NCBI GenBank assembly: GCA_965207225.1
Contig: CBDBLV010000005.1
Span: 256,001-320,000, forward strand
Source of the DNA: Dehalococcoidia bacterium
GTDB lineage: Bacteria; Chloroflexota; Dehalococcoidia; Plut-88900
DNA: 64,000 bases
Direction of reading: 5' to 3'
Part shown: positions 23,195 to 58,005 of the stretch, one piece after another
Position numbering within the stretch: position 1 is the stretch's first letter
Layout of the letters: the number at the start of each line of letters is the position of its first letter
The notes under the pieces: model-generated
What the model saw: only the letters and a program-made list of their open reading frames with translations
Databases searched by the model: none
Told to the model about the DNA's origin: nothing
Program-made: the position numbers and the translations under genes

Positions 23195-24094
23195 ATGCCC
23201 CGCAACCTCAAGCGCAGCAAGACTTCCTCCTTCGGCACCGTGTCCCGAGAGGGCCACGACTCCCGATCCTTCTACTCCAAGCGCCTCTACGAAGGTCGGC
23301 GGAACGGTGCCCGGGAATCGACGGAGTACGTCGAGAACACCCCCGACCACCTCGATGTCATCCACTGCGCCGACGCCCTGGACATGCACCACCTCCCCGA
23401 CAACTCCGTCCACCTGATGATCACCTCGCCCCCGTACAACGTCGGCAAGGACTATGACGACGACCTCTCCCTCTCCGAGTACCGGGCCCTGCTTTCCGAC
23501 GTGCTGGGCGAGACGTACCGGGTGCTGGTGGAGGGGGGTCGGGCGTGCGTGAACATCGCCAACGTCGGGCGGACACCCTACATACCCCTGCACGTCGACA
23601 TCATGGACATCGCCCGTGAGTGCGGCTTCCATATGCGCGGCGAGATAATCTGGGACAAGGGCGCCAGTGCGGGCACGTCCTGCGCCTGGGGCAGCTGGAG
23701 GTCGGCGAGCAATCCGGTCTTAAGGGACGTCCACGAATACATCCTGGTCTTCTGCAAGGATGCCTACAAGCGTCGGGTCACGGGGGAGAACAGTGTGGGC
23801 CGGGACGAGTTCCTGGAGTACACCAAGAGCATCTGGCGCTTCCCCGCCGCCAGCGCCCGGAAGGCCAACCACCCCGCCCCCTTCCCCCTGGAGCTGCCGC
23901 TCCGTTTGATCAACCTTTACTCATTCAAGGGCGACGTGGTCCTGGACCCGTTCATGGGGTCGGGCACGACGGCTGAGGCGGCAGTCCAAGCCAACCGACA
24001 CTACGTGGGCTACGAAATCAACCCCGTCTACGTAGACCATGCCCGAGCCAGGCTAGGCCAGATGTCGGGGCTGCCGATGAAGCTAGTGGACTGA
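23195..24094 (+). CDS. site-specific DNA methyltransferase (N4-C/N6-A, beta class), orphan in this window
   Basis: ITSPPYN catalytic motif precedes HPAPFP and VLDPFMGSGTT. Confidence 0.92.
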   Translation: MPRNLKRSKTSSFGTVSREGHDSRSFYSKRLYEGRRNGARESTEYVENTPDHLDVIHCADALDMHHLPDNSVHLMITSPPYNVGKDYDDDLSLSEYRALLSDVLGETYRVLVEGGRACVNIANVGRTPYIPLHVDIMDIARECGFHMRGEIIWDKGASAGTSCAWGSWRSASNPVLRDVHEYILVFCKDAYKRRVTGENSVGRDEFLEYTKSIWRFPAASARKANHPAPFPLELPLRLINLYSFKGDVVLDPFMGSGTTAEAAVQANRHYVGYEINPVYVDHARARLGQMSGLPMKLVD

Positions 24095-24937: not shown

Positions 24938-26098
24938 CTATTGCCCCTTCCAGAAGATGCGATAGATCGCACCGCTCCCGTGATCGGCCACCAGCAATGA
25001 CCCGTCCGACGCCTGCGCTATGTCCAACGGCCTGTCTATTCCAAAGGCAAAGTCCGACACCTCCGCCCGGTAGCCCTCCCCATCCCGTTCCAGCCGCACC
25101 CGCACCACCTTCCGTCCCGTGTCCCGGAGGTGCGACCCCCACTGCACGACGAACAGGTCGTTGCGATACTCCTCTGGTAACATGCCGCCTGTATAGAAGA
25201 GTAGCCCGTTCGCCGAGGAGCGTTCCTCCATCTCTGCGACGGGCGGGAGCGTGTCTTCGCAGTTGGAGCCCTGCCCGTCGCCCCAGCAGTCGGGCCAGCC
25301 GTAGCCGCCACCGTCGACCAGCAGGTTAAGCTCCTCCGGGACGTGCAGATCAAGCTCGTCCCTCCCGTTGTCGGCGCCAAACAGCGTTCCGTCCTCGGGG
25401 TGGAAGGCTATGTCGTACATGTTGCGCAGCCCCGAGGAGAAGACCCGCATATCCGAACCATCCGGGTTGAGCTGGAGCACCGACGCGCTTAGCTCGTTCC
25501 TCTCCCGGCACGCGTTGCACGTCGACCCCAAGGTCAGGTACATCTTCCCGTCGGGCCCGAGGGCCAGACCGTTGTTCTGGTGTATCCCTACCGGCAGGTC
25601 CGACACGATCGTCTCAATCTCATCCACCTGTCCGTCCCCGTACGAGTCGATCAGTGCCGTAACCGACCCGCGATGAGATACGTAAAGCCTATCCTCGTGG
25701 TGCAGCAGGCCAAGGGGCGCGACAAAGCCTCGGGCGTAAAGCTCCGCCGAGTCCGCCGTCCCGTCGGAGTCGTCATCCGACAGTACGGCAATGTCCCCGT
25801 CCTGCTCGCTGACGAACACCCTCCCGTCCCCCGACACCGCAATGCCGGTCGGGTTTGAAAGCCCAAGAAAGTACACATTGGCCCCAAACCCCGGCGGCAC
25901 CACCAGCCCCGCACCCCCCGCCACCAGGCCCCCAACCTCGCTTTCAACTGACACGTCAATAGCCGATGCCACTTCGGTCGGCTCCGGGATAGGTGTCGGT
26001 GTTTCCGTGCCGCACCCTGCCACGCCCACCCCCACCATTAACAGAAGGGAGATAGCCGCATACCACCGACATTTTGTAGTGAGGATCTTTGCCGCCAA
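24938..26098 (-). CDS. glucose/sorbosone dehydrogenase-family beta-propeller lipoprotein
   Basis: Lipobox VAGC; GPDGKMYLTLGSTCNAC, GLRN, DNGRD, YGWPDC, RPLDI..DGSLLVAD. Confidence 0.88.
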   Translation of the reverse strand: MAAKILTTKCRWYAAISLLLMVGVGVAGCGTETPTPIPEPTEVASAIDVSVESEVGGLVAGGAGLVVPPGFGANVYFLGLSNPTGIAVSGDGRVFVSEQDGDIAVLSDDDSDGTADSAELYARGFVAPLGLLHHEDRLYVSHRGSVTALIDSYGDGQVDEIETIVSDLPVGIHQNNGLALGPDGKMYLTLGSTCNACRERNELSASVLQLNPDGSDMRVFSSGLRNMYDIAFHPEDGTLFGADNGRDELDLHVPEELNLLVDGGGYGWPDCWGDGQGSNCEDTLPPVAEMEERSSANGLLFYTGGMLPEEYRNDLFVVQWGSHLRDTGRKVVRVRLERDGEGYRAEVSDFAFGIDRPLDIAQASDGSLLVADHGSGAIYRIFWKGQ

Positions 26099-26132: not shown

Positions 26133-26756
26133 CTACCAATCGGCGGGTTTCGTGAAGTTGCCCTGGGCGTCGGAGAGAGTGTCGGGGAAAAGGCTTGCAC
26201 TCAAGGGGCCTCGGCGTAAGGGCCTGTACCAGGAGGCTGCTTTACGCAGCTCGAAGCTTGTCCTCCTGCTCGGATCAATGACCCCGACCTGCTTACCCAA
26301 CCTCGTACGCGTCATTTCGATGGGCAGCTTAAGGTCGGAATCGTTGGAAATTACTACCGCCATTTCATAGTCATCCTCGAAACCATCTATCAACAGGTAG
26401 GTGGCGAGATTGACGTCCGAACCCTTCTCCTCAGTGTTGAGCACCTCAACGGTGCGCGGACCGATTTGTGGTTCCTGAACCAAGGGTCGAAGCCTGGGTT
26501 TGGTTAGAAAATGCCCATAGTGCATGGTCAGGTTTGGAATAGTCCGCAGGGCACGAAGATAGGTCTGCTGACGCTGCGGCTGGGTCGGGTTTCCAGGGCG
26601 ACTGTCTACAAGAGCGGTGAAATACCGTATCTGAGCTATCTCATGCTTGGGAAGCAAAAGCGACGCAAGTCTACCGACATCCAGCCAGCGATGTGGAGTG
26701 CCTTTCAGGGCTCGATAGTAGAGATTAAAGCCGTCTATATAGACGTTGGTACGGAT
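26133..26756 (-). CDS. NYN-domain (PIN-like) ribonuclease with apparent ATC start
   Basis: Frame extends 5' of the called ORF: (I)RTNVYIDGFNLYY...IRYFTA...EEKGSDVNLA...ISNDSDL; an in-frame TAG lies 9 codons upstream with no ATG/GTG/TTG between. Confidence 0.88.
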   Translation of the reverse strand: MRTNVYIDGFNLYYRALKGTPHRWLDVGRLASLLLPKHEIAQIRYFTALVDSRPGNPTQPQRQQTYLRALRTIPNLTMHYGHFLTKPRLRPLVQEPQIGPRTVEVLNTEEKGSDVNLATYLLIDGFEDDYEMAVVISNDSDLKLPIEMTRTRLGKQVGVIDPSRRTSFELRKAASWYRPLRRGPLSASLFPDTLSDAQGNFTKPADW

Positions 26757-26773
26757 GAGAAGCTGCTTCCCAA

Positions 26774-26836
26774 GAAAAAGCTAAGGCTGCCGAAAGGCAG
26801 CCTTGCGCCCTGCCGCCGAAGCGAACAGGGGGGGTA
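26774..26836 (-). ncRNA. candidate ~60-nt structured RNA (cUUCGg hairpin plus terminator hairpin) upstream of the NYN gene
   Basis: CCCUGUUCGC-UUCG-GCGGCAGGG (26830-26808), then AAGGCUGCC-UUUC-GGCAGCCUU (26804-26783) followed by AGCUUUUUCUU. Confidence 0.5.
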
Positions 26837-26841
26837 CATGA

Positions 26842-26870
26842 ACTATATGACAGGCCCATCTGTCTGTCAA
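26842..26870 (-). promoter_or_regulatory. near-consensus sigma70 promoter
   Basis: TTGACA (26870-26865), 17 nt, TATAGT (26847-26842); TGACAG...CTGTCA inverted repeat overlaps the -35 and spacer. Confidence 0.75.
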
Positions 26871-26919: not shown

Positions 26920-29900
26920 CTACTCCCCAGCAACCGGCTCCGGTGCTCCGGCAACCTCTGGACTCGTCCTGTGAAACAGTCGGTTCAACAGCCTCGGGAT
27001 GCTGTCGTTGAAGAGCATGTAGACGATCGGCAGCACTACCAGCGTCAGGGCCGTGGAGCTTATCAGCCCCCCGATTACTACCGTGGCCAACTCCGCGCTG
27101 ATTATCCCGCCGCTCCCCTCCGACGCCACGGCCAGGGGTAGCAGCGCAAAGCTGGTGGTCAGCGCGGTCATCAGGATGGGCCGCAGCCTCACCCGGGCCC
27201 CGGATATCAGGGCGTCGTAGACCGCCAACCCTCGGGCCCTCTGCTGCTCCACGAACGCGATCAGCACTATGGCGTTGGTCACCACTATCCCGATTAGCAG
27301 CAGCACCCCCATCATGGCTGCCAGGCCAAGCGACCGGTCCGTCACCGTAAGCGCCAGCATCACCCCGACCAGGGCCAGTGGCAGGGTCAGGATGATAACG
27401 AAGGGGTTCCTCAGGCTCCCCAGGGCTGCAACCATAACCAGGTAGACCAGCACTATCCCGACCGCCATGGCCGTGAAGATGGCCTGGAATCCCTCCTCTA
27501 TGTCGGCGAAGATTCCGCCGCTGTTCACCTCGACCCCCGGGGGCAGGTCCAGGGCGTCAATCTTCTCGTCCACGATTACGCCCACCGCTTGCGTGTCGTC
27601 GGCGATTATGTCCGCCTCGATGCTCGCCGACCTCCGGCCGTCAGTCCGGCTTATGGACACGGGCCCTTCCCGCAGTACGGGCTCGGCCAGCTCACCCAGG
27701 GGCGCCGACCCCAGGGGCCCGACTATCATCAAAGAACTAAGCTGGTCGACACCCCCTACGGCCCGGGGATCACCCGTAAGGACCACGTCCACCGCCTCCC
27801 CGTCCACGTTGATGGAGGTTACCCTCTGCCCAATGGTGTACTGGCTTAGCTGGATCCCCACCTGCCTCGTGGTCAGGCCGATTTGCCCCGCCTTCTCCGG
27901 GTCAACCTCCACCGCCACCTCTGCGCGGGCTTCGGCCACGTCGCTTTCCAGGTTCACCACGCCGTCGATGGTTGCGATGGAGGCGGCAAGCTCTTCGGTC
28001 ACCTCGGCAATGTCATCGTAGTCGGGGCCCGTGACGAAGATCTCGATCCCGCCCGTCGGCGGCCCGTCCGATATCTCCGAAATTCGCAGCGTCTGGCCCG
28101 GCTTTTCGAACTCACCCCTAAGAGTCTCTGCGATCCCATCCGGTGCGTCGTCGGAGAGCCGCACGAAGAAGCTGGCCTGCTGCAGCCCTGCCGTGGGATC
28201 GTCCCCCGTCCCGGGTCCTGCAAAGTCGCTGCCGCCGATGCTCACGGTGTATACGTCAGACAGCTCGTCGACCCTCGACTCCACTTCGGCTACGGCTTCC
28301 ACCGTGCGCTCCACCCCCGAGCCGGGCGGTACGCTTAACTCGATGCTCAGGAAACGGTCGCCGCTGCCTCCGAACAGGTTGACAGGGATGTTGGCCAGGA
28401 GTCCCAGGCTCCCGACGGTGATCAGTGCCGCTGCCCCCAGCGTCACGATCCGATGCCCCAGCGCCCACTTAAGGATGACCAGGTAGGTCCGCTGCAGCCA
28501 GGTCTCCTGCATCGGGATGTCTCCCTCGTCACCTGCGCCCTCGGGCAGGTCCCCGGGGCGCAGCAGGAAGGCCCCGAGCACCGGCACCGCGGTCAACGCC
28601 ACCAGCAGCGATGCCACCAGCGCGAAGCTCACCGTCAGGGCAAAGGGCAGGAAGAATGCCCCGACCAGCCCTTCTATGAAGCCCAGGGGCACGAACACCA
28701 CCACCGTGGTCATCGTCGATGCGAAGATGGCGGGCCCGACCTCCTTCGTCGCATCAAATGCCGCCCGCCACCGTTCTCGACCACCCTGGATGTGCCGGTA
28801 TACGTTCTCCAGTACCACGATCGAGTCGTCCACCACCCGGCCCACCGATATGGCCAACCCACCCAGAGTCATGAAGTTCAGAGTCATGTCCTGCCAGTTC
28901 ATCAGCAGGATGCCCGTGAACACGCTCAGGGGTATTGACAGTGCAATGACCACCGTTGGGCGCAGGGTGTTGAAGAACCCCTTCACGAAGGTTGGGCGGA
29001 TGGTCAGCATGAAGGCGAACACCACCGTCACCGCAAACAGGAACCCGAACGTCGCCTCCCGCAGCAGGTTGTCTATCTGTTGCTGGATCTCGGGGCCCTG
29101 GTCCGTCACGACGATGATGTCAATGTCCCCGGGAATGCCTTGAACTCCATCGGTAAAGTCGGTCACACCGCCGGTGACGTCCACGGTGTTGGCCTCGGGC
29201 TCCTTGGTCACGCTCACAAAGAGCCCCGGCTTCCCATTGGTGCGCGATATGCTGGACGGCGCCCCCGTCCCGAACGACACCTCCGCCACGTCCGACAGCC
29301 GCACGGGCCCCGACCCGTTCGACCCTACCACCAGGCTCTCCAGCTCCTCCACCGATCCCAGGGTGTGGGTCGTTTTGGCAATCACCGCTTGGCCTCCGTC
29401 AAAGAGCAGGCCAGCGGGAAGGGTCACGTTGTTCTCCCGAAGGGCCGACGACACCTGGAACATCGAGACGCCCTGCGCCGACATCTTCTCCAGGTCCGCA
29501 GTCACGATGAAGTTGCGGTCCACGTCCCCCACCAGCTGGACGTCCGCCACCCCCTCGATCTTCTCGATCTCCGGGATGATGATGTCCTGCACTACTTCCT
29601 GCACTTCTATGAGCGGCCTGTCCGACACCACGCCGAACTGGATTACCGGGAACGCGTCGGGGTTGAAGCGGCCGACCTCCGGGTCTTCCGCTGCAGGCGG
29701 GAATGTCACGCCATTAAGGGCGTTCTCCACGTATGCCTCGGCCTCGGCCATGTCCGTGCCGTATTGGAATGTGCCGAGCACTATCACCCGACCCTCCGAA
29801 GAAGAAGACTGAACCGTCTCCAGACCATCCGCCCCCGAGATCGCTCGCTCGATGGGTTCGGTGACGTCCCGGACTACGGCCTCGGGGTCGGCGGACGGGT

Positions 29901-30054
29901 ACGACGCTATGACTGTGACCAGGGGAAACTCGATCTGTGGGAACAGTTCCACCTGCATCGCCCGGTAGGAGAACACCCCGCCGGCCAAAACAAGAATGAT
30001 GGTCAGAAGCGTAACTGTCGGGCGGCGCAGCGCGAAGGAAGTAAGAAAGGTCAA
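26920..30054 (-). CDS. RND efflux transporter permease (AcrB/SwrC-like)
   Basis: 1044 aa; VELFP, GRVVDDSIVVLEN, GIVVTNAIVLI, RLRPILMTALTT. Confidence 0.95.
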   Translation of the reverse strand: MTFLTSFALRRPTVTLLTIILVLAGGVFSYRAMQVELFPQIEFPLVTVIASYPSADPEAVVRDVTEPIERAISGADGLETVQSSSSEGRVIVLGTFQYGTDMAEAEAYVENALNGVTFPPAAEDPEVGRFNPDAFPVIQFGVVSDRPLIEVQEVVQDIIIPEIEKIEGVADVQLVGDVDRNFIVTADLEKMSAQGVSMFQVSSALRENNVTLPAGLLFDGGQAVIAKTTHTLGSVEELESLVVGSNGSGPVRLSDVAEVSFGTGAPSSISRTNGKPGLFVSVTKEPEANTVDVTGGVTDFTDGVQGIPGDIDIIVVTDQGPEIQQQIDNLLREATFGFLFAVTVVFAFMLTIRPTFVKGFFNTLRPTVVIALSIPLSVFTGILLMNWQDMTLNFMTLGGLAISVGRVVDDSIVVLENVYRHIQGGRERWRAAFDATKEVGPAIFASTMTTVVVFVPLGFIEGLVGAFFLPFALTVSFALVASLLVALTAVPVLGAFLLRPGDLPEGAGDEGDIPMQETWLQRTYLVILKWALGHRIVTLGAAALITVGSLGLLANIPVNLFGGSGDRFLSIELSVPPGSGVERTVEAVAEVESRVDELSDVYTVSIGGSDFAGPGTGDDPTAGLQQASFFVRLSDDAPDGIAETLRGEFEKPGQTLRISEISDGPPTGGIEIFVTGPDYDDIAEVTEELAASIATIDGVVNLESDVAEARAEVAVEVDPEKAGQIGLTTRQVGIQLSQYTIGQRVTSINVDGEAVDVVLTGDPRAVGGVDQLSSLMIVGPLGSAPLGELAEPVLREGPVSISRTDGRRSASIEADIIADDTQAVGVIVDEKIDALDLPPGVEVNSGGIFADIEEGFQAIFTAMAVGIVLVYLVMVAALGSLRNPFVIILTLPLALVGVMLALTVTDRSLGLAAMMGVLLLIGIVVTNAIVLIAFVEQQRARGLAVYDALISGARVRLRPILMTALTTSFALLPLAVASEGSGGIISAELATVVIGGLISSTALTLVVLPIVYMLFNDSIPRLLNRLFHRTSPEVAGAPEPVAGE

Positions 30055-35486: not shown

Positions 35487-35873
35487 CTAGACGCGAGACA
35501 GGGTCTCCGCGTCCTGGATGAAATCCTCGGTCTCGTGAATGAGCAGCTCGATGGCGTCTACCGGCTCGCACCAGCCGGTGTAGAAACAATCGCCGTGAAG
35601 AGCGCTCTGTCGAGTGAAGTAGCGGTCACGCAGGCTAGAGATTTCGGGGTTGTTCCTGGCCAGTTTGAGCAGTGATCGGGTCGTATCCGGAGACTTGGGC
35701 GGCAGTTGTCCCGTACGGGCAAGCACCAAACCGTCAGCCGCGCGCTTGGCGGCGCACCAAGCTTTTTCCGCAGCATCCCGTATGTCTCCCGCTGCAAGGC
35801 TCTCCAGGGAGGCTTTGTGCATGCGACGGGCGCCGCCGAAGATAGGGGTGGCGTCAGCTGCAGTGGTGGTCAT
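35487..35873 (-). CDS. PaREP1/HEPN-like small protein
   Basis: DIRDAAEKAWCA..LVLARTGQ shared with 14548..14931; GAGG RBS. Confidence 0.7.
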   Translation of the reverse strand: MTTTAADATPIFGGARRMHKASLESLAAGDIRDAAEKAWCAAKRAADGLVLARTGQLPPKSPDTTRSLLKLARNNPEISSLRDRYFTRQSALHGDCFYTGWCEPVDAIELLIHETEDFIQDAETLSRV

Positions 35874-36087
35874 TGGCTTTTCCTCTGAAGCAATGATATC
35901 ATGACGCAAGAGAGTTATACAGGGGCCCTCGCACAGTATCGCTCACCCACTCCGATCCCCCCGTGACCACACCCCCCGACTCGAGACGCAACCCTGAATA
36001 ACCCCTAACCCTTTCGTCCCTTTTCGAAGAACCACCGGCAATGCGGTGTGTTGTCCGTGTTTTCGCTTTTCCTCGGGAGCAGGACCC

Positions 36088-45968: not shown

Positions 45969-46393
45969 AACACACCTCCACGGGGATTTCGGGGCTAGGG
46001 GTGGGGATTATACAACGTGGAGGAGGAGGGATGGGTCGGGTCGACAGAATATATCACTGAAGTCGAAATGCATAATCAACAGGATAGCGAGGCCCTCTCA
46101 TCAAAGGTAGCGGAAGAACGCGGTTACATGAGAGTGCTAATGACATATGAATTAACGTACAATCTACCAGTTGACGAGTGTCTATTCTTGTTCTTAGAAA
46201 AATCGAATTAACCAGCCGTAGCAGTCTAATAACCGCACTGTACGAGGATAGGATTAAGCACTCGAATGAAGCGCAAGAGAGAAGAAACTGTGTTCAATTG
46301 CTAAAATGTGAGGACATTTAAGTGCAGGATAGACCCATCTAGGATAGAAGGTGATAGGCAATTGTTGGATTCTCTATTGTTTCCTGTAATCTC

Positions 46394-46873
46394 ATGAGCG
46401 TGATACAAATGTCCCTCAACTTTCCCCTCGATTCTGACGGCTTCCTCCGGCGCGCCTGCCCCAACTGTGTTCGAGAGTTCAAATGGCTAATAGAGGGAGG
46501 TAGTCCAGCTGCTAATCCGCCTGAACAATACTACTGTCCTTACTGCGGATCATCAGCTGGGCCGCACGACTGGTTTACTTCGGAACAGATTGCCTTTATT
46601 GAATCAGAGGTGGTCGATGAAACCTTAAGACCATCATTGGAAGAAATATCAAAATCTCTTCGACGTTTAGAGCAGTCGTCTGGAGGTCTCATCAAATTCT
46701 CCACCAGTATCGAAGGACTGGAACGAAAGCAAGCGGCTCCAGTATTCGAGCCAAATGACATGAAGCAAGTAGATTTCACTTGCCATCCTTCTGAACCTCT
46801 AAAGATTGACGACGCGTGGATTGACAAAGTGCATTGTCGCCTCTGTGGACAACTTTCCGATGCCACGACATAA
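46394..46873 (+). CDS. zinc-ribbon protein of unknown function
   Basis: CPNC...CPYC and CH...CRLC; lower-GC codon usage. Confidence 0.75.
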   Translation: MSVIQMSLNFPLDSDGFLRRACPNCVREFKWLIEGGSPAANPPEQYYCPYCGSSAGPHDWFTSEQIAFIESEVVDETLRPSLEEISKSLRRLEQSSGGLIKFSTSIEGLERKQAAPVFEPNDMKQVDFTCHPSEPLKIDDAWIDKVHCRLCGQLSDATT

Positions 46874-48218
46874 CAAGGGCGAGTTAATCGGCGAATGGGA
46901 ACTCATAGAATTTCTCGGCCAAGGTGGTAACGCGGAAGTTTGGCGGGCAACCAAGGGCGAAGAAATCATTGCTCTAAAGATCCTTAAACAGAAGAAGGCA
47001 GACTCAGAATCCTACCAGCGATTTCGTCAAGAGATTCAGGCGCTCAGAAGGATCGGTGCTCACCCTGGCATCATGCCGTTGCTTGACGCCGATCTTCCGA
47101 ATCTCCCCACAAAAGCCCGTCCAGCCTGGTTGGGTATGCCTATTGCGACCCCTCTGGCTCAGGCGCTATCGAATTCTTCCCTTCGCGAGGTCGTAGTCGC
47201 GGTTGCTGAAATAGCGAATACCCTAACGTACCTGCATGAGCAATTTTACATACACCACAGGGATATCAAGCCTACAAACCTGTACCTGCATAATGGACGC
47301 CCAACAATTTCTGATTTCGGACTCGCTGACATTCCTGATTCAGAAGATTTTACGGTTGCTGGACAACCTCTCGGGCCTAAGTTCTTCATTGCATATGAGA
47401 TGATTGCTGATCCATCTGAGGCAGAATCTGGACCTTCGGACGTCTTTTCGTTGGCAAAAACGCTATGGGTACTATGTGTAGATCAGCGTTGGCCCCCACA
47501 GGGTGAGCAGAAGGCTACAAATGAGGCGTATTCAATCGACAAATACCGACCTCATCCCCTTTCTCATCAACTCGATAAGCTAATTGAGCGGTGCACCCGG
47601 CACAAGCCCCAAGCGCGGCCTTCAATGAAGGAGGTTGCAGATGATTTGATTGGCTGGATAGCACTAGATGATGCCACCCCTCAGCAGGCAGTCGACTTAT
47701 CGGAGAAATGGAGCAAACTCCGAGAAACTGCAGAACCGAAACTTCGTCAAGTCCGCAAGGAGACCGAACAACTGCAATGTTTCCGAGCTGCTGTTCGAAA
47801 GTTCCAAGAACTAATTGAGCCGCTGCACAGCGAGATTCGCCAACAATACCCTGCAGCAGAGTTTAACCAACGTCGAAAATTCATAGATTCGTTCTTTTAC
47901 GAATTTCACAAGCACGAAGTAACTAACGAAGATATCAGAGCAACTATACTCTCGGGATCTGGCTGGAATCCTATCCTGCTCGCTATCGGGATCGCCATTC
48001 GGACTCGGTCGGACGGTGATTTGGAGTTCGGTGGGATGTTTTATTTGGGTCAGACGGAGACTATGGGGGGGAAAATTGACTTCTGGCAGTCAGAGCGTCA
48101 GAGGATTCCCTGCGGTTCCATTGCTCTTGAAGCCAAGCTCTCACAATTGGCTACCGAGATGCAAGCTTTGTTTCCTTCGTGGCTGGACAAGTTTATATTG
48201 GCTCTAGCAAGTGCATAG
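46860..48218 (+). CDS. serine/threonine protein kinase with uncharacterised C-terminal domain
   Basis: LGQGGNAEVW, ALK, RFRQE, HRDIKPTN, DFG, DVFSL; ATG overlaps the end of the upstream gene. Confidence 0.9.
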   Translation: MPRHNKGELIGEWELIEFLGQGGNAEVWRATKGEEIIALKILKQKKADSESYQRFRQEIQALRRIGAHPGIMPLLDADLPNLPTKARPAWLGMPIATPLAQALSNSSLREVVVAVAEIANTLTYLHEQFYIHHRDIKPTNLYLHNGRPTISDFGLADIPDSEDFTVAGQPLGPKFFIAYEMIADPSEAESGPSDVFSLAKTLWVLCVDQRWPPQGEQKATNEAYSIDKYRPHPLSHQLDKLIERCTRHKPQARPSMKEVADDLIGWIALDDATPQQAVDLSEKWSKLRETAEPKLRQVRKETEQLQCFRAAVRKFQELIEPLHSEIRQQYPAAEFNQRRKFIDSFFYEFHKHEVTNEDIRATILSGSGWNPILLAIGIAIRTRSDGDLEFGGMFYLGQTETMGGKIDFWQSERQRIPCGSIALEAKLSQLATEMQALFPSWLDKFILALASA

Positions 48219-56907: not shown

Positions 56908-58005
56908 ATGACTCGACGGTATAATCATACTAACGGTACTCCGATGAATTCACTACACGAATTATTCGAATCGACTTTAGAGGAAATGCTGTCAGCAAAT
57001 GACGCATTCCTTGATCCAACTGATCTACAGGTTGCGGTTACCGAAATGATTCCCGAGTTAGCAGAAGAGACTGCTGATGCGATGTTGGGAAGGATCAAAA
57101 AGAGCTACAAGGCGACATTGAAGGCCAACCGACGGGAACAAGCGAGGTTCGAGAATAGGCATATCGCGCTTTGGAAAGAACCTCTTGACCTATTGGAGCT
57201 CTTCATTGCGGTCTCTAGAGAAGCCGGTGAAGATTGCAACCGCAGGCTCCGAAATAGCAACCCTATCAATAGCGGAGCTACGGTAGAAGCTCTCACCAGA
57301 CTTCATGCAAAAGCTTGCCAGACATCCTCTGCAATACTCATTCTTCTGCGATTTGGATATGCGGACGATGCTAACGCCAGATGGCGTTCATTACATGAGA
57401 TTGCCGTTGTCGGGCACTTCCTAAGGCAGGGTGGCGAGGAATTAGCTCAACGTTATCTGCTGCACGATGCAATTCAAAGATACAGAATCGCGTGCGCTCT
57501 GCGCGACTATGCAGACCGGACAAATGAAGTGCCGCTGCCCGAATCGGATTTCGAAGGGCTAAAGGCGGAACACGACGAACTGATAGCCCGTTTTGGTAAG
57601 CAATTTGGAAAGGATTACGGCTGGGCTGAATCCGTTTTGAAGAAAAAAGATCCTAAGTTGTCGGACATCGAATTATTCGTCAAGTCAGACCATTGGCGTC
57701 CCTACTACAGATTGGCGAGTGGCAATGTTCATCCTAATGCACACGGCATCTATTTTCGGCTTGGGCTTAGGAAAGAGTCTGACAACATTCTGCTAGTAGG
57801 GCCAAGCAATTTCGGTTTGGCGGATCCCGGGCACTCCACTGCGGTCTCACTCCTGAACATAACTATCGCCTTGCTCATGGTGGACCCAACCCTCGATGAT
57901 TTTGTCCACTCATCAATTGTCGAACGTCTGGCCGATGAGGTCGGCGAATCGTTTCTTCAAGTCCATCGTAAGATTGAACTACATCCAGATCCCGCGAACG
58001 CTTAG
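56908..58005 (+). CDS. DUF5677-like protein on a lower-GC insert
   Basis: WRSLHE (RxxxE), YGWA, YYRLASGNVH; AT-richer than neighbours. Confidence 0.7.
   Translation: MTRRYNHTNGTPMNSLHELFESTLEEMLSANDAFLDPTDLQVAVTEMIPELAEETADAMLGRIKKSYKATLKANRREQARFENRHIALWKEPLDLLELFIAVSREAGEDCNRRLRNSNPINSGATVEALTRLHAKACQTSSAILILLRFGYADDANARWRSLHEIAVVGHFLRQGGEELAQRYLLHDAIQRYRIACALRDYADRTNEVPLPESDFEGLKAEHDELIARFGKQFGKDYGWAESVLKKKDPKLSDIELFVKSDHWRPYYRLASGNVHPNAHGIYFRLGLRKESDNILLVGPSNFGLADPGHSTAVSLLNITIALLMVDPTLDDFVHSSIVERLADEVGESFLQVHRKIELHPDPANA

Follow-up and report, generated by a model that had tools for sequence, protein, structure and literature searches.

What does a short structured RNA do when it lies between a promoter and the gene for a predicted nuclease that opens with ATC? 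Such an arrangement occurs on the minus strand of a 64,000-nucleotide stretch of Dehalococcoidia DNA (hereafter, the window), and an earlier note on this sequence had proposed that the RNA is the antitoxin of a type III-like toxin-antitoxin (TA) system.

Anatomy of the cassette and its NYN protein

The cassette begins with a promoter-like site found by sequence scan, in which the −35 hexamer TTGACA (26865..26870, minus strand, as are all features of the cassette and its two flanking genes) is separated by a 17-nt spacer from the −10 hexamer TATAGT (26842..26847). A predicted small RNA of ~63 nt follows, the candidate antitoxin (26772..26835), which matches our RNA model R1 at 72.8 bits, the focal copy itself being among the model-building sequences. 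Transcription likely starts at A26835, to judge from a column that holds A in 85% and 94% of rows (alignments A2 and A4, respectively). The RNA would then comprise an unpaired 5′ C-run (26831..26834; C at 75–100% in the columns preceding hairpin 1, in both alignments), hairpin 1 (26808..26830), with a CCC/GGG closing stem and a cUUCGg loop (26816..26821), and the terminator-like hairpin 2, both hairpins being supported by fold and covariation. The 9-bp core of hairpin 2 (26783..26804) is extended by 2 bp past a one-base 3′ bulge in the fold (A26782) to span 26780..26806, and its basal C-G pair is near-invariant (C98/G98). The sequence scan places a U tract at 26772..26779, giving a predicted intrinsic terminator. 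Beyond it are a putative weak Shine-Dalgarno-like GGGAAG (26766..26771), predicted to lie within a local hairpin in the focal copy, and ATC (26754..26756), the likely non-canonical start codon, where the 207-aa NYN ORF (26133..26756) opens.

The promoter, both hairpins, the U tract and the ATC-started NYN gene are all where the earlier note had put them; its distance of ~20 nt to the start of the ORF becomes 15 nt past the U tract and 23 nt past hairpin 2. It had also seen no adjacent protein antitoxin gene, and the neighbors, both outside the cassette, are an AcrB-like efflux gene upstream (26920..30054; its homolog in locus L006 is ACR_tran), which is also present at the empty site described below, and a GSDH-type beta-propeller gene downstream (24938..26098; ORF list and Pfam). 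In the 5-kb region alone, neither promoters (1, vs 1.0 in shuffles) nor terminators (2, vs 2.8) are in excess, and the 67-nt fold of the focal element has z = −3.8, equaled by 0/200 shuffles. It is conservation in homologs, rather than local scan counts, that sets the element above chance.

The protein is a predicted ribonuclease. It matches Pfam NYN (PF01936; E = 6.7e-10, 40.1 bits vs a cut-off of 24.2), and residues D8, D114, D139 and D141 are invariant in 70 aligned homologs, with the same acidic residues kept in 102–119 of 120 close homologs. The structure model (pLDDT 95.7) has 2qip and the MARF1 NYN domain as its top Foldseek matches; a PDB sequence search returned only 2qip (E = 0.028), an ESM Atlas search returned NYN clusters only, and no NCBIfam model matches the protein (P0001). 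Its best match in the defense library is PADLOC HEC-09 (E = 2.6e-41, residues 2–207 on model positions 3–202/203). Fold and acidic active-site residues are shared with the LabA-like NYN.COG1432 proteins (VPA0982, PDB 2qip; NicB), a family whose function is listed as unknown (PMC5499597). NicB, a distant fused relative, is reported to be a metabolic hydroxylase, so relatives need not all be toxins. In two distant relatives annotated as NicB (L296:886-1842 and L297:844-1869), NYN is fused to an Xre/MbcA/ParS antitoxin domain, with a hairpin and terminator still in front; the hydroxylase annotation of these fusions may deserve re-examination. The nearest relatives of the focal protein are labeled Dehalococcoidia. 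The focal genome carries a second cassette, C1, with an NYN of 52% identity and its RNA, and a LabA-type paralog, C2, of 27% identity, which differs in having no such RNA.

Is ATC the true start? As the earlier note had observed, no ATG, GTG or TTG lies between it and an in-frame TAG 9 codons before; the first canonical start in the ORF is a TTG at codon 34, beyond the catalytic D8. Had the ATC been a private inactivating mutation, as that note allowed, it would not be expected throughout a clade. A single branch of 11 rows unites the focal gene with ten relatives that have ATC or ATT (SH-aLRT 98, in a quick tree from which the broken ORFs L016, L026 and L048 were excluded), and dN/dS of 0.05–0.17 between the focal NYN and this clade points to purifying selection; together these rule out such a mutation. 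A canonical start further upstream is ruled out by the TAG in the focal gene and, in the relatives, by the lack of a common length among the gene callers' N-terminal extensions, which run from 2 to 67 aa in close homologs. The start position could be scored in 92 of the 120 close homologs, with Ile in 72 and Met in 17; in the other 28, the called start was later or the motif was unscorable. ATA and CTG start cases sit on another branch. From these patterns, we infer that ATC serves as the start in vivo.

Conservation of the RNA and its linkage to NYN genes

R1 was built from 53 loci and the focal copy, all with the RNA upstream of the gene. When these 54 copies were aligned by MAFFT, which is blind to structure, 91% of paired cells were occupied by pairs, compared with 79% after shuffling and no more than 48% when partners were slid, and 18 of the 20 pairs varied on both sides, counts to be read with the structure having been derived from the same sequences and with related copies not being independent. 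Both-sided changes were found at 7/9 pairs of hairpin 1 in this alignment (9/9 in held-out matches) and at 11/11 pairs of hairpin 2, which was 99% paired. Across the held-out matches, in an alignment fitted to R1, 18/20 pairs covary. The consensus runs from an A through the unpaired C-run, the CCC/GGG hairpin 1 with its cUUCGg loop and hairpin 2 to the U tract, and the only hypervariable segment is the loop of hairpin 2. Two nested hairpins account for the covariation, in a count that did not include pseudoknot pairings. The earlier note had staked its proposal on a two-hairpin leader being kept in homologous loci, and it is: this comparative evidence marks the element as a structured RNA that has been conserved.

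In the Rfam comparison that the note had also called for, the focal RNA matched no Rfam 15 family (best E = 2.6), and Rfam 15 has no family for the RNA of NYN cassettes in 27 related loci. None of the Rfam families DUF3800-I to -XI matches the NYN-linked RNA; DUF3800-IX does occur in L108 and L194, solely as an element apart from it. In both places (L108:710-1567 and L194:1364-2613), this second RNA neighbors NYN-type RNA cassettes, accompanied in L108 by a DUF3800 gene, which suggests that there are hot spots that accumulate nuclease-RNA cassettes.

An R1 RNA adjoins NYN in 84 of 85 homologous loci drawn from viral contigs and GTDB, the only locus of the 85 with no clear R1 match being L005 (NYN 29% identity). 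The RNA is upstream in the sense orientation in 59 loci, which span Chloroflexota, Planctomycetota, Acidobacteriota, Pseudomonadota, Bacteroidota and others; downstream and convergent in 20 (17 in Actinomycetota records and 3 in viral contigs); divergent in 4; and downstream in the sense orientation in 1. R1 recovered the RNA in 25/26 leaderless loci at 41–72 bits. Held-out metagenomic loci gave a similar picture, with the RNA in 77/80 (55 upstream, 17 convergent and 5 divergent; 13 of the 77 copies were assigned a layout by coordinates), and each of the 3 misses had <40 nt of upstream DNA, one showing a cut-off partial match. The RNA is thus off the NYN mRNA in 25/85 and 22/77 loci, 9 of them divergent.

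A promoter-like site (≥8/12) stands at the same offset before 48/58 upstream-layout copies, vs 2.6% of random positions, and before 14/20 convergent and 4/4 divergent copies (random positions, 0.6–3.5% over the layouts). Where RNA and gene are separated, the promoter of the RNA scored above that of NYN, taken as the highest-scoring site no more than 60 nt from the NYN start, in 35/39 loci (27/31 convergent and 8/8 divergent; 2 equal and 2 lower). Loci with no canonical start past hairpin 2 make up 11/59 and 6/52 of the upstream layout and 0/25 and 0/12 of separated loci. Many of the loci examined are near-copies. Since the layouts track the protein tree (in the quick tree, 5 groups are explained by 4 changes), they represent few independent events; on this evidence, the RNA was retained through each of a small number of rearrangements. 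RNA and protein also show co-inheritance (Mantel rho 0.34, 0/999 permutations, 71 loci).

Presence, loss and spread of the cassette

How widely is the cassette distributed, and what happens when part of it is lost? An NYN match at E ≤ 1e-20 was returned by 35 of 151 Dehalococcoidia genomes. All 31 matches at E < 1e-45 adjoin the RNA, which scores more weakly, at 22–32 bits, beside 4 of the 31 than beside the other 27. Of 59 RNA matches (E < 1e-6) in Dehalococcoidia, 24 have no full-length NYN of the focal clade nearby. Six of these orphans keep NYN stumps, and some orphans are arranged in runs of 2–3 copies, most of which have a promoter-like site of their own. In nine genomes of the genus (four of which repeat L006–L009), the focal site is full in 6, holds only promoter and RNA in 2 and is empty in 1; NYN without the RNA was found in 0/9. 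Loss therefore seems to be one-way, the RNA being kept after NYN is lost and NYN alone not being found, a pattern that could also be explained by the short RNA being a smaller mutational target.

Of 150 other genomes in one actinobacterial class, R1 matched none (0/150); the cassette is accordingly patchy, and ordinary terminators are not picked up by the model. The focal 4-Mb genome holds 2 strong R1 matches, each adjoining NYN, and generic terminators as a source of matches are ruled out by these two results.

NYN relatives occur on 443 plasmid records and in prophages, and relatives are present on 4.6-kb E. coli plasmids; a viral search with a plasmid NYN as query gave no match. No RNA carrier was listed among sequencing runs, a result that has no bearing on expression. 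Distant plasmid relatives show, by eye, the same order of promoter, CCC/GGG hairpin and terminator with other sequences. On ColE-type enterobacterial plasmids (L087:565-724 and L301–L303), NYN and 4, 4, 4 or 5 tandem hairpin units with a 33-nt period, followed by one terminator, lie just past the RNAI region. The motif is not universal among distant NYNs (below about 35% identity), none being found at L137–L139, L200, L202 and L203. Distant NYN subfamilies in L193, L194, L199, L201 and L105:1620-1740 have hairpin elements nearby whose sequences differ; those of L193, L194 and L199 are divergent, and all may represent further RNA families.

Several rearranged loci are of interest in their own right. 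Genome G138 carries four orphan RNAs (L148:1062-2361), three of them ~135 nt apart with a recurring G-rich repeat between, of a type different from the RNA of its own NYN cassette. In G092 (L115:1350-2400), two tandem RNAs, each with a promoter-like site, precede a full DUF3800 gene by ~40 nt, and NYN is absent; this could be either an orphan beside a newcomer or a partner swap. The cassettes of L046, L027 and L067 lie between two copies or pieces of similar sequence, namely MazG-like, NADH dehydrogenase subunit families and the cassette's own 5′ end, an arrangement that hints at insertion by recombination; their nearest ORFs showed no transposase.

Gene content around the cassette varies freely, and we found no conserved protein partner among 139 flanking ORFs, rough script calls from which 11 redundant or distant loci were excluded. 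Most are housekeeping or unknown; ~10 match PADLOC models, some of them generic ATPases, and a minority encode restriction-modification (RM), integrase, relaxase, capsid or type II TA proteins, with RM neighbors in only a few relatives (L050, L072 and L075). Elsewhere in the window are a low-GC patch (46–50%) at 46364-48215 (+) whose ORFs encode a Cys-motif protein (169 aa) and a Ser/Thr kinase-domain protein (460 aa) and which may have been acquired horizontally as a module; a low-GC patch encoding a DUF5677 protein (56908-58002, +); a stand-alone N6/N4 DNA methylase (23195-24094, +); and a PaREP1-like small protein (35487-35909, −).

How the RNA may act on the nuclease

Taking these observations together, we consider it likely that the cassette pairs an RNA antitoxin with an NYN RNase toxin. 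The two-hairpin element would be transcribed as a ~63-nt RNA that binds the NYN nuclease and keeps it inactive in a type III-like manner, with the 5′ C-run and hairpin 1 as the protein-binding unit. A strong promoter would set the RNA in excess over NYN. In the upstream layout, NYN mRNA would arise solely by terminator read-through, and translation of the focal NYN from a weak ATC would damp the toxin further; in the separated layouts, a weaker promoter than that of the RNA would drive NYN. Should transcription stop or the cassette be lost, the RNA would decay first and release the RNase. If the rest of this mechanism holds, it is conceivable, though we lean slightly against it, that such release underlies addiction when the cassette is carried by plasmids or prophages, and possibly abortive infection as well. 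The anti-phage role that the earlier note had raised as possible is not supported by these data, as HEC-09 protected against no phage tested and the neighbors are mostly housekeeping genes.

Near-perfect linkage argues that the RNA acts on NYN, and its survival of rearrangements off the NYN mRNA argues that any such action is in trans. That it restrains NYN is suggested by the apparent RNA excess in every layout, the one-way loss and the arrays. It is also possible that the RNA is an obligatory partner that activates, stabilizes or targets the nuclease as an RNP enzyme. Linkage in every layout, covariation and co-inheritance (the Mantel correlation above) would suit any RNP, and toxicity goes unreported for HEC-09. 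We nevertheless find this unlikely, since the RNA offers no variable segment that could serve as a guide (its only hypervariable part is the hairpin 2 loop), orphan RNAs are kept with promoters whereas NYN alone was not found, and NYN expression appears to be damped in every layout.

The remaining alternatives are less probable still. RNases are known to control their own mRNAs through cis-acting leaders, as rnc and rne do, and an element that is only such a leader or attenuator would fit the terminator-like hairpin 2, upstream-sense being the commonest layout (59/85 and 55/77) and the regulation of AbiD1 through its 5′ UTR. The same RNA is found in 47 separated loci, however, structure intact and usually with its own, stronger promoter, so the element is not merely a cis leader; tandem and orphan copies with their own promoters also make that view very improbable. 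We give equally little weight to the idea that the motif functions at the DNA level, as a site for recombination or mobility through which the cassette spreads, with the nuclease as passenger cargo. Sporadic spread (including 0/150 in the actinobacterial class), tandem and orphan copies, stumps and the lack of a transposase would all suit it, but G-U pairs and the cUUCGg loop are maintained on one strand, and a promoter before and U tract behind in all layouts are signatures of RNA. Least probable is a type I-like restriction of NYN by antisense pairing or transcription collision. The RNA is directed at the 3′ end of NYN in 20 + 17 loci, and in the first 20 convergent loci it ends −4 to +21 nt from the stop codon; any overlap is a few bases at most, however, and upstream-sense and divergent copies are unable to pair with the mRNA.

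How does an RNA antitoxin for an NYN RNase compare with known systems? RNA antitoxins are described for ToxN-type, HEPN (AbiF and AbiV) or deaminase (AvcD) toxins, the classical ones lying upstream in one operon, at least in the accounts available. As in classical type III systems (ToxIN, AbiQ, CptIN and TenpIN), where a terminator is described as setting the RNA excess (PMC12283969, PMC12373285), the order in the focal cassette and in 59/85 and 55/77 loci is promoter, RNA, terminator and toxin. In contrast to those systems, this order is absent in the other 25 and 22 loci, so a shared operon is not obligatory; the focal cassette has a single RNA unit, tandem units of variable number occurring only in the distant plasmid relatives; and the RNA may differ in fold as well, since two nested hairpins account for its covariation and the classical repeat forms an H-type pseudoknot. 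No homology of NYN to ToxN or AbiQ emerged in Pfam, PADLOC, PDB sequence or fold searches. AbiF/AbiD systems are described as a HEPN RNase with an upstream ncRNA and terminator read-through, as for RCd22-AbiFCd, with the RNA acting in cis as well as in trans (PMC12373285; review PMC13064643). The likeness extends to the promoter, the short structured RNA, the intrinsic terminator and an RNase gene reached by read-through. The candidate toxin here has an NYN/PIN fold rather than HEPN (Abi_2), however, and its RNA is unrelated to the abiF RNA motif (no Rfam 15 family above chance) and may also lie downstream or divergent. The RNA-antitoxin idea of the earlier note gains strong, if indirect, backing from a covarying RNA that accompanies NYN in four layouts with a promoter-like site, outlives NYN and forms tandem arrays in plasmid relatives; membership of ToxIN or AbiF fails on fold, repeats and an obligatory upstream position. 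The cassette is outside both families, by fold, RNA, repeats and operon.

HEC-09 shares the full-length NYN match, the conserved aspartates and the MARF1 likeness (Payne et al.). It is described as a one-gene candidate, cloned with ~150 bp of upstream DNA, for which the accessible text reports neither defense nor toxicity (bioRxiv 10.1101/2024.01.29.577857) and mentions no RNA; there it is embedded in Hma or RM loci, whereas the focal cassette lies between efflux and GSDH genes. The DUF3800-I, drum and skipping-rope RNAs, to which Weinberg et al. assigned no function (Weinberg 2017, PMC5737381), likewise occur on either side or strand of a partner gene with a terminator at their end. The partner here is NYN and not DUF3800, described as an RNase H fold (PMC10910872).

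In the literature we found, no NYN-linked RNA is described; Zilberzwige-Tal 2025 (Cell), Tang 2008 and the Weinberg 2017 supplement lie outside that scope. If our reading is true, the known RNA-antitoxin systems would gain both a toxin fold (PIN/NYN) and an RNA family that are new to them, and a function would be given to part of the large uncharacterized NYN family, which numbers 1,836 50%-identity clusters at E ≤ 1e-30, the RNA being shown for not all of them. Our reading would also suggest why HEC-09, cloned with its upstream DNA, appeared silent, and offer a testable hypothesis for DUF3800-type RNAs. AbiF is reportedly the ancestor of Cas13; given that report, a second nuclease fold that binds hairpin RNAs and has undergone array expansion would be of evolutionary and engineering interest, in a system as small as one gene and one 63-nt RNA. 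More speculatively, and with rather more doubt than confidence, a large and so far unrecognized PIN/NYN branch in many phyla, plasmids and prophages may be under the control of free-standing small-RNA antitoxins that do without a shared operon, form tandem arrays and whose orphans, hoarded by their carriers, immunize hosts against incoming cassettes. The same logic might then apply to the DUF3800, drum and skipping-rope RNAs, making nuclease plus small RNA a general class beyond ToxN and AbiF.
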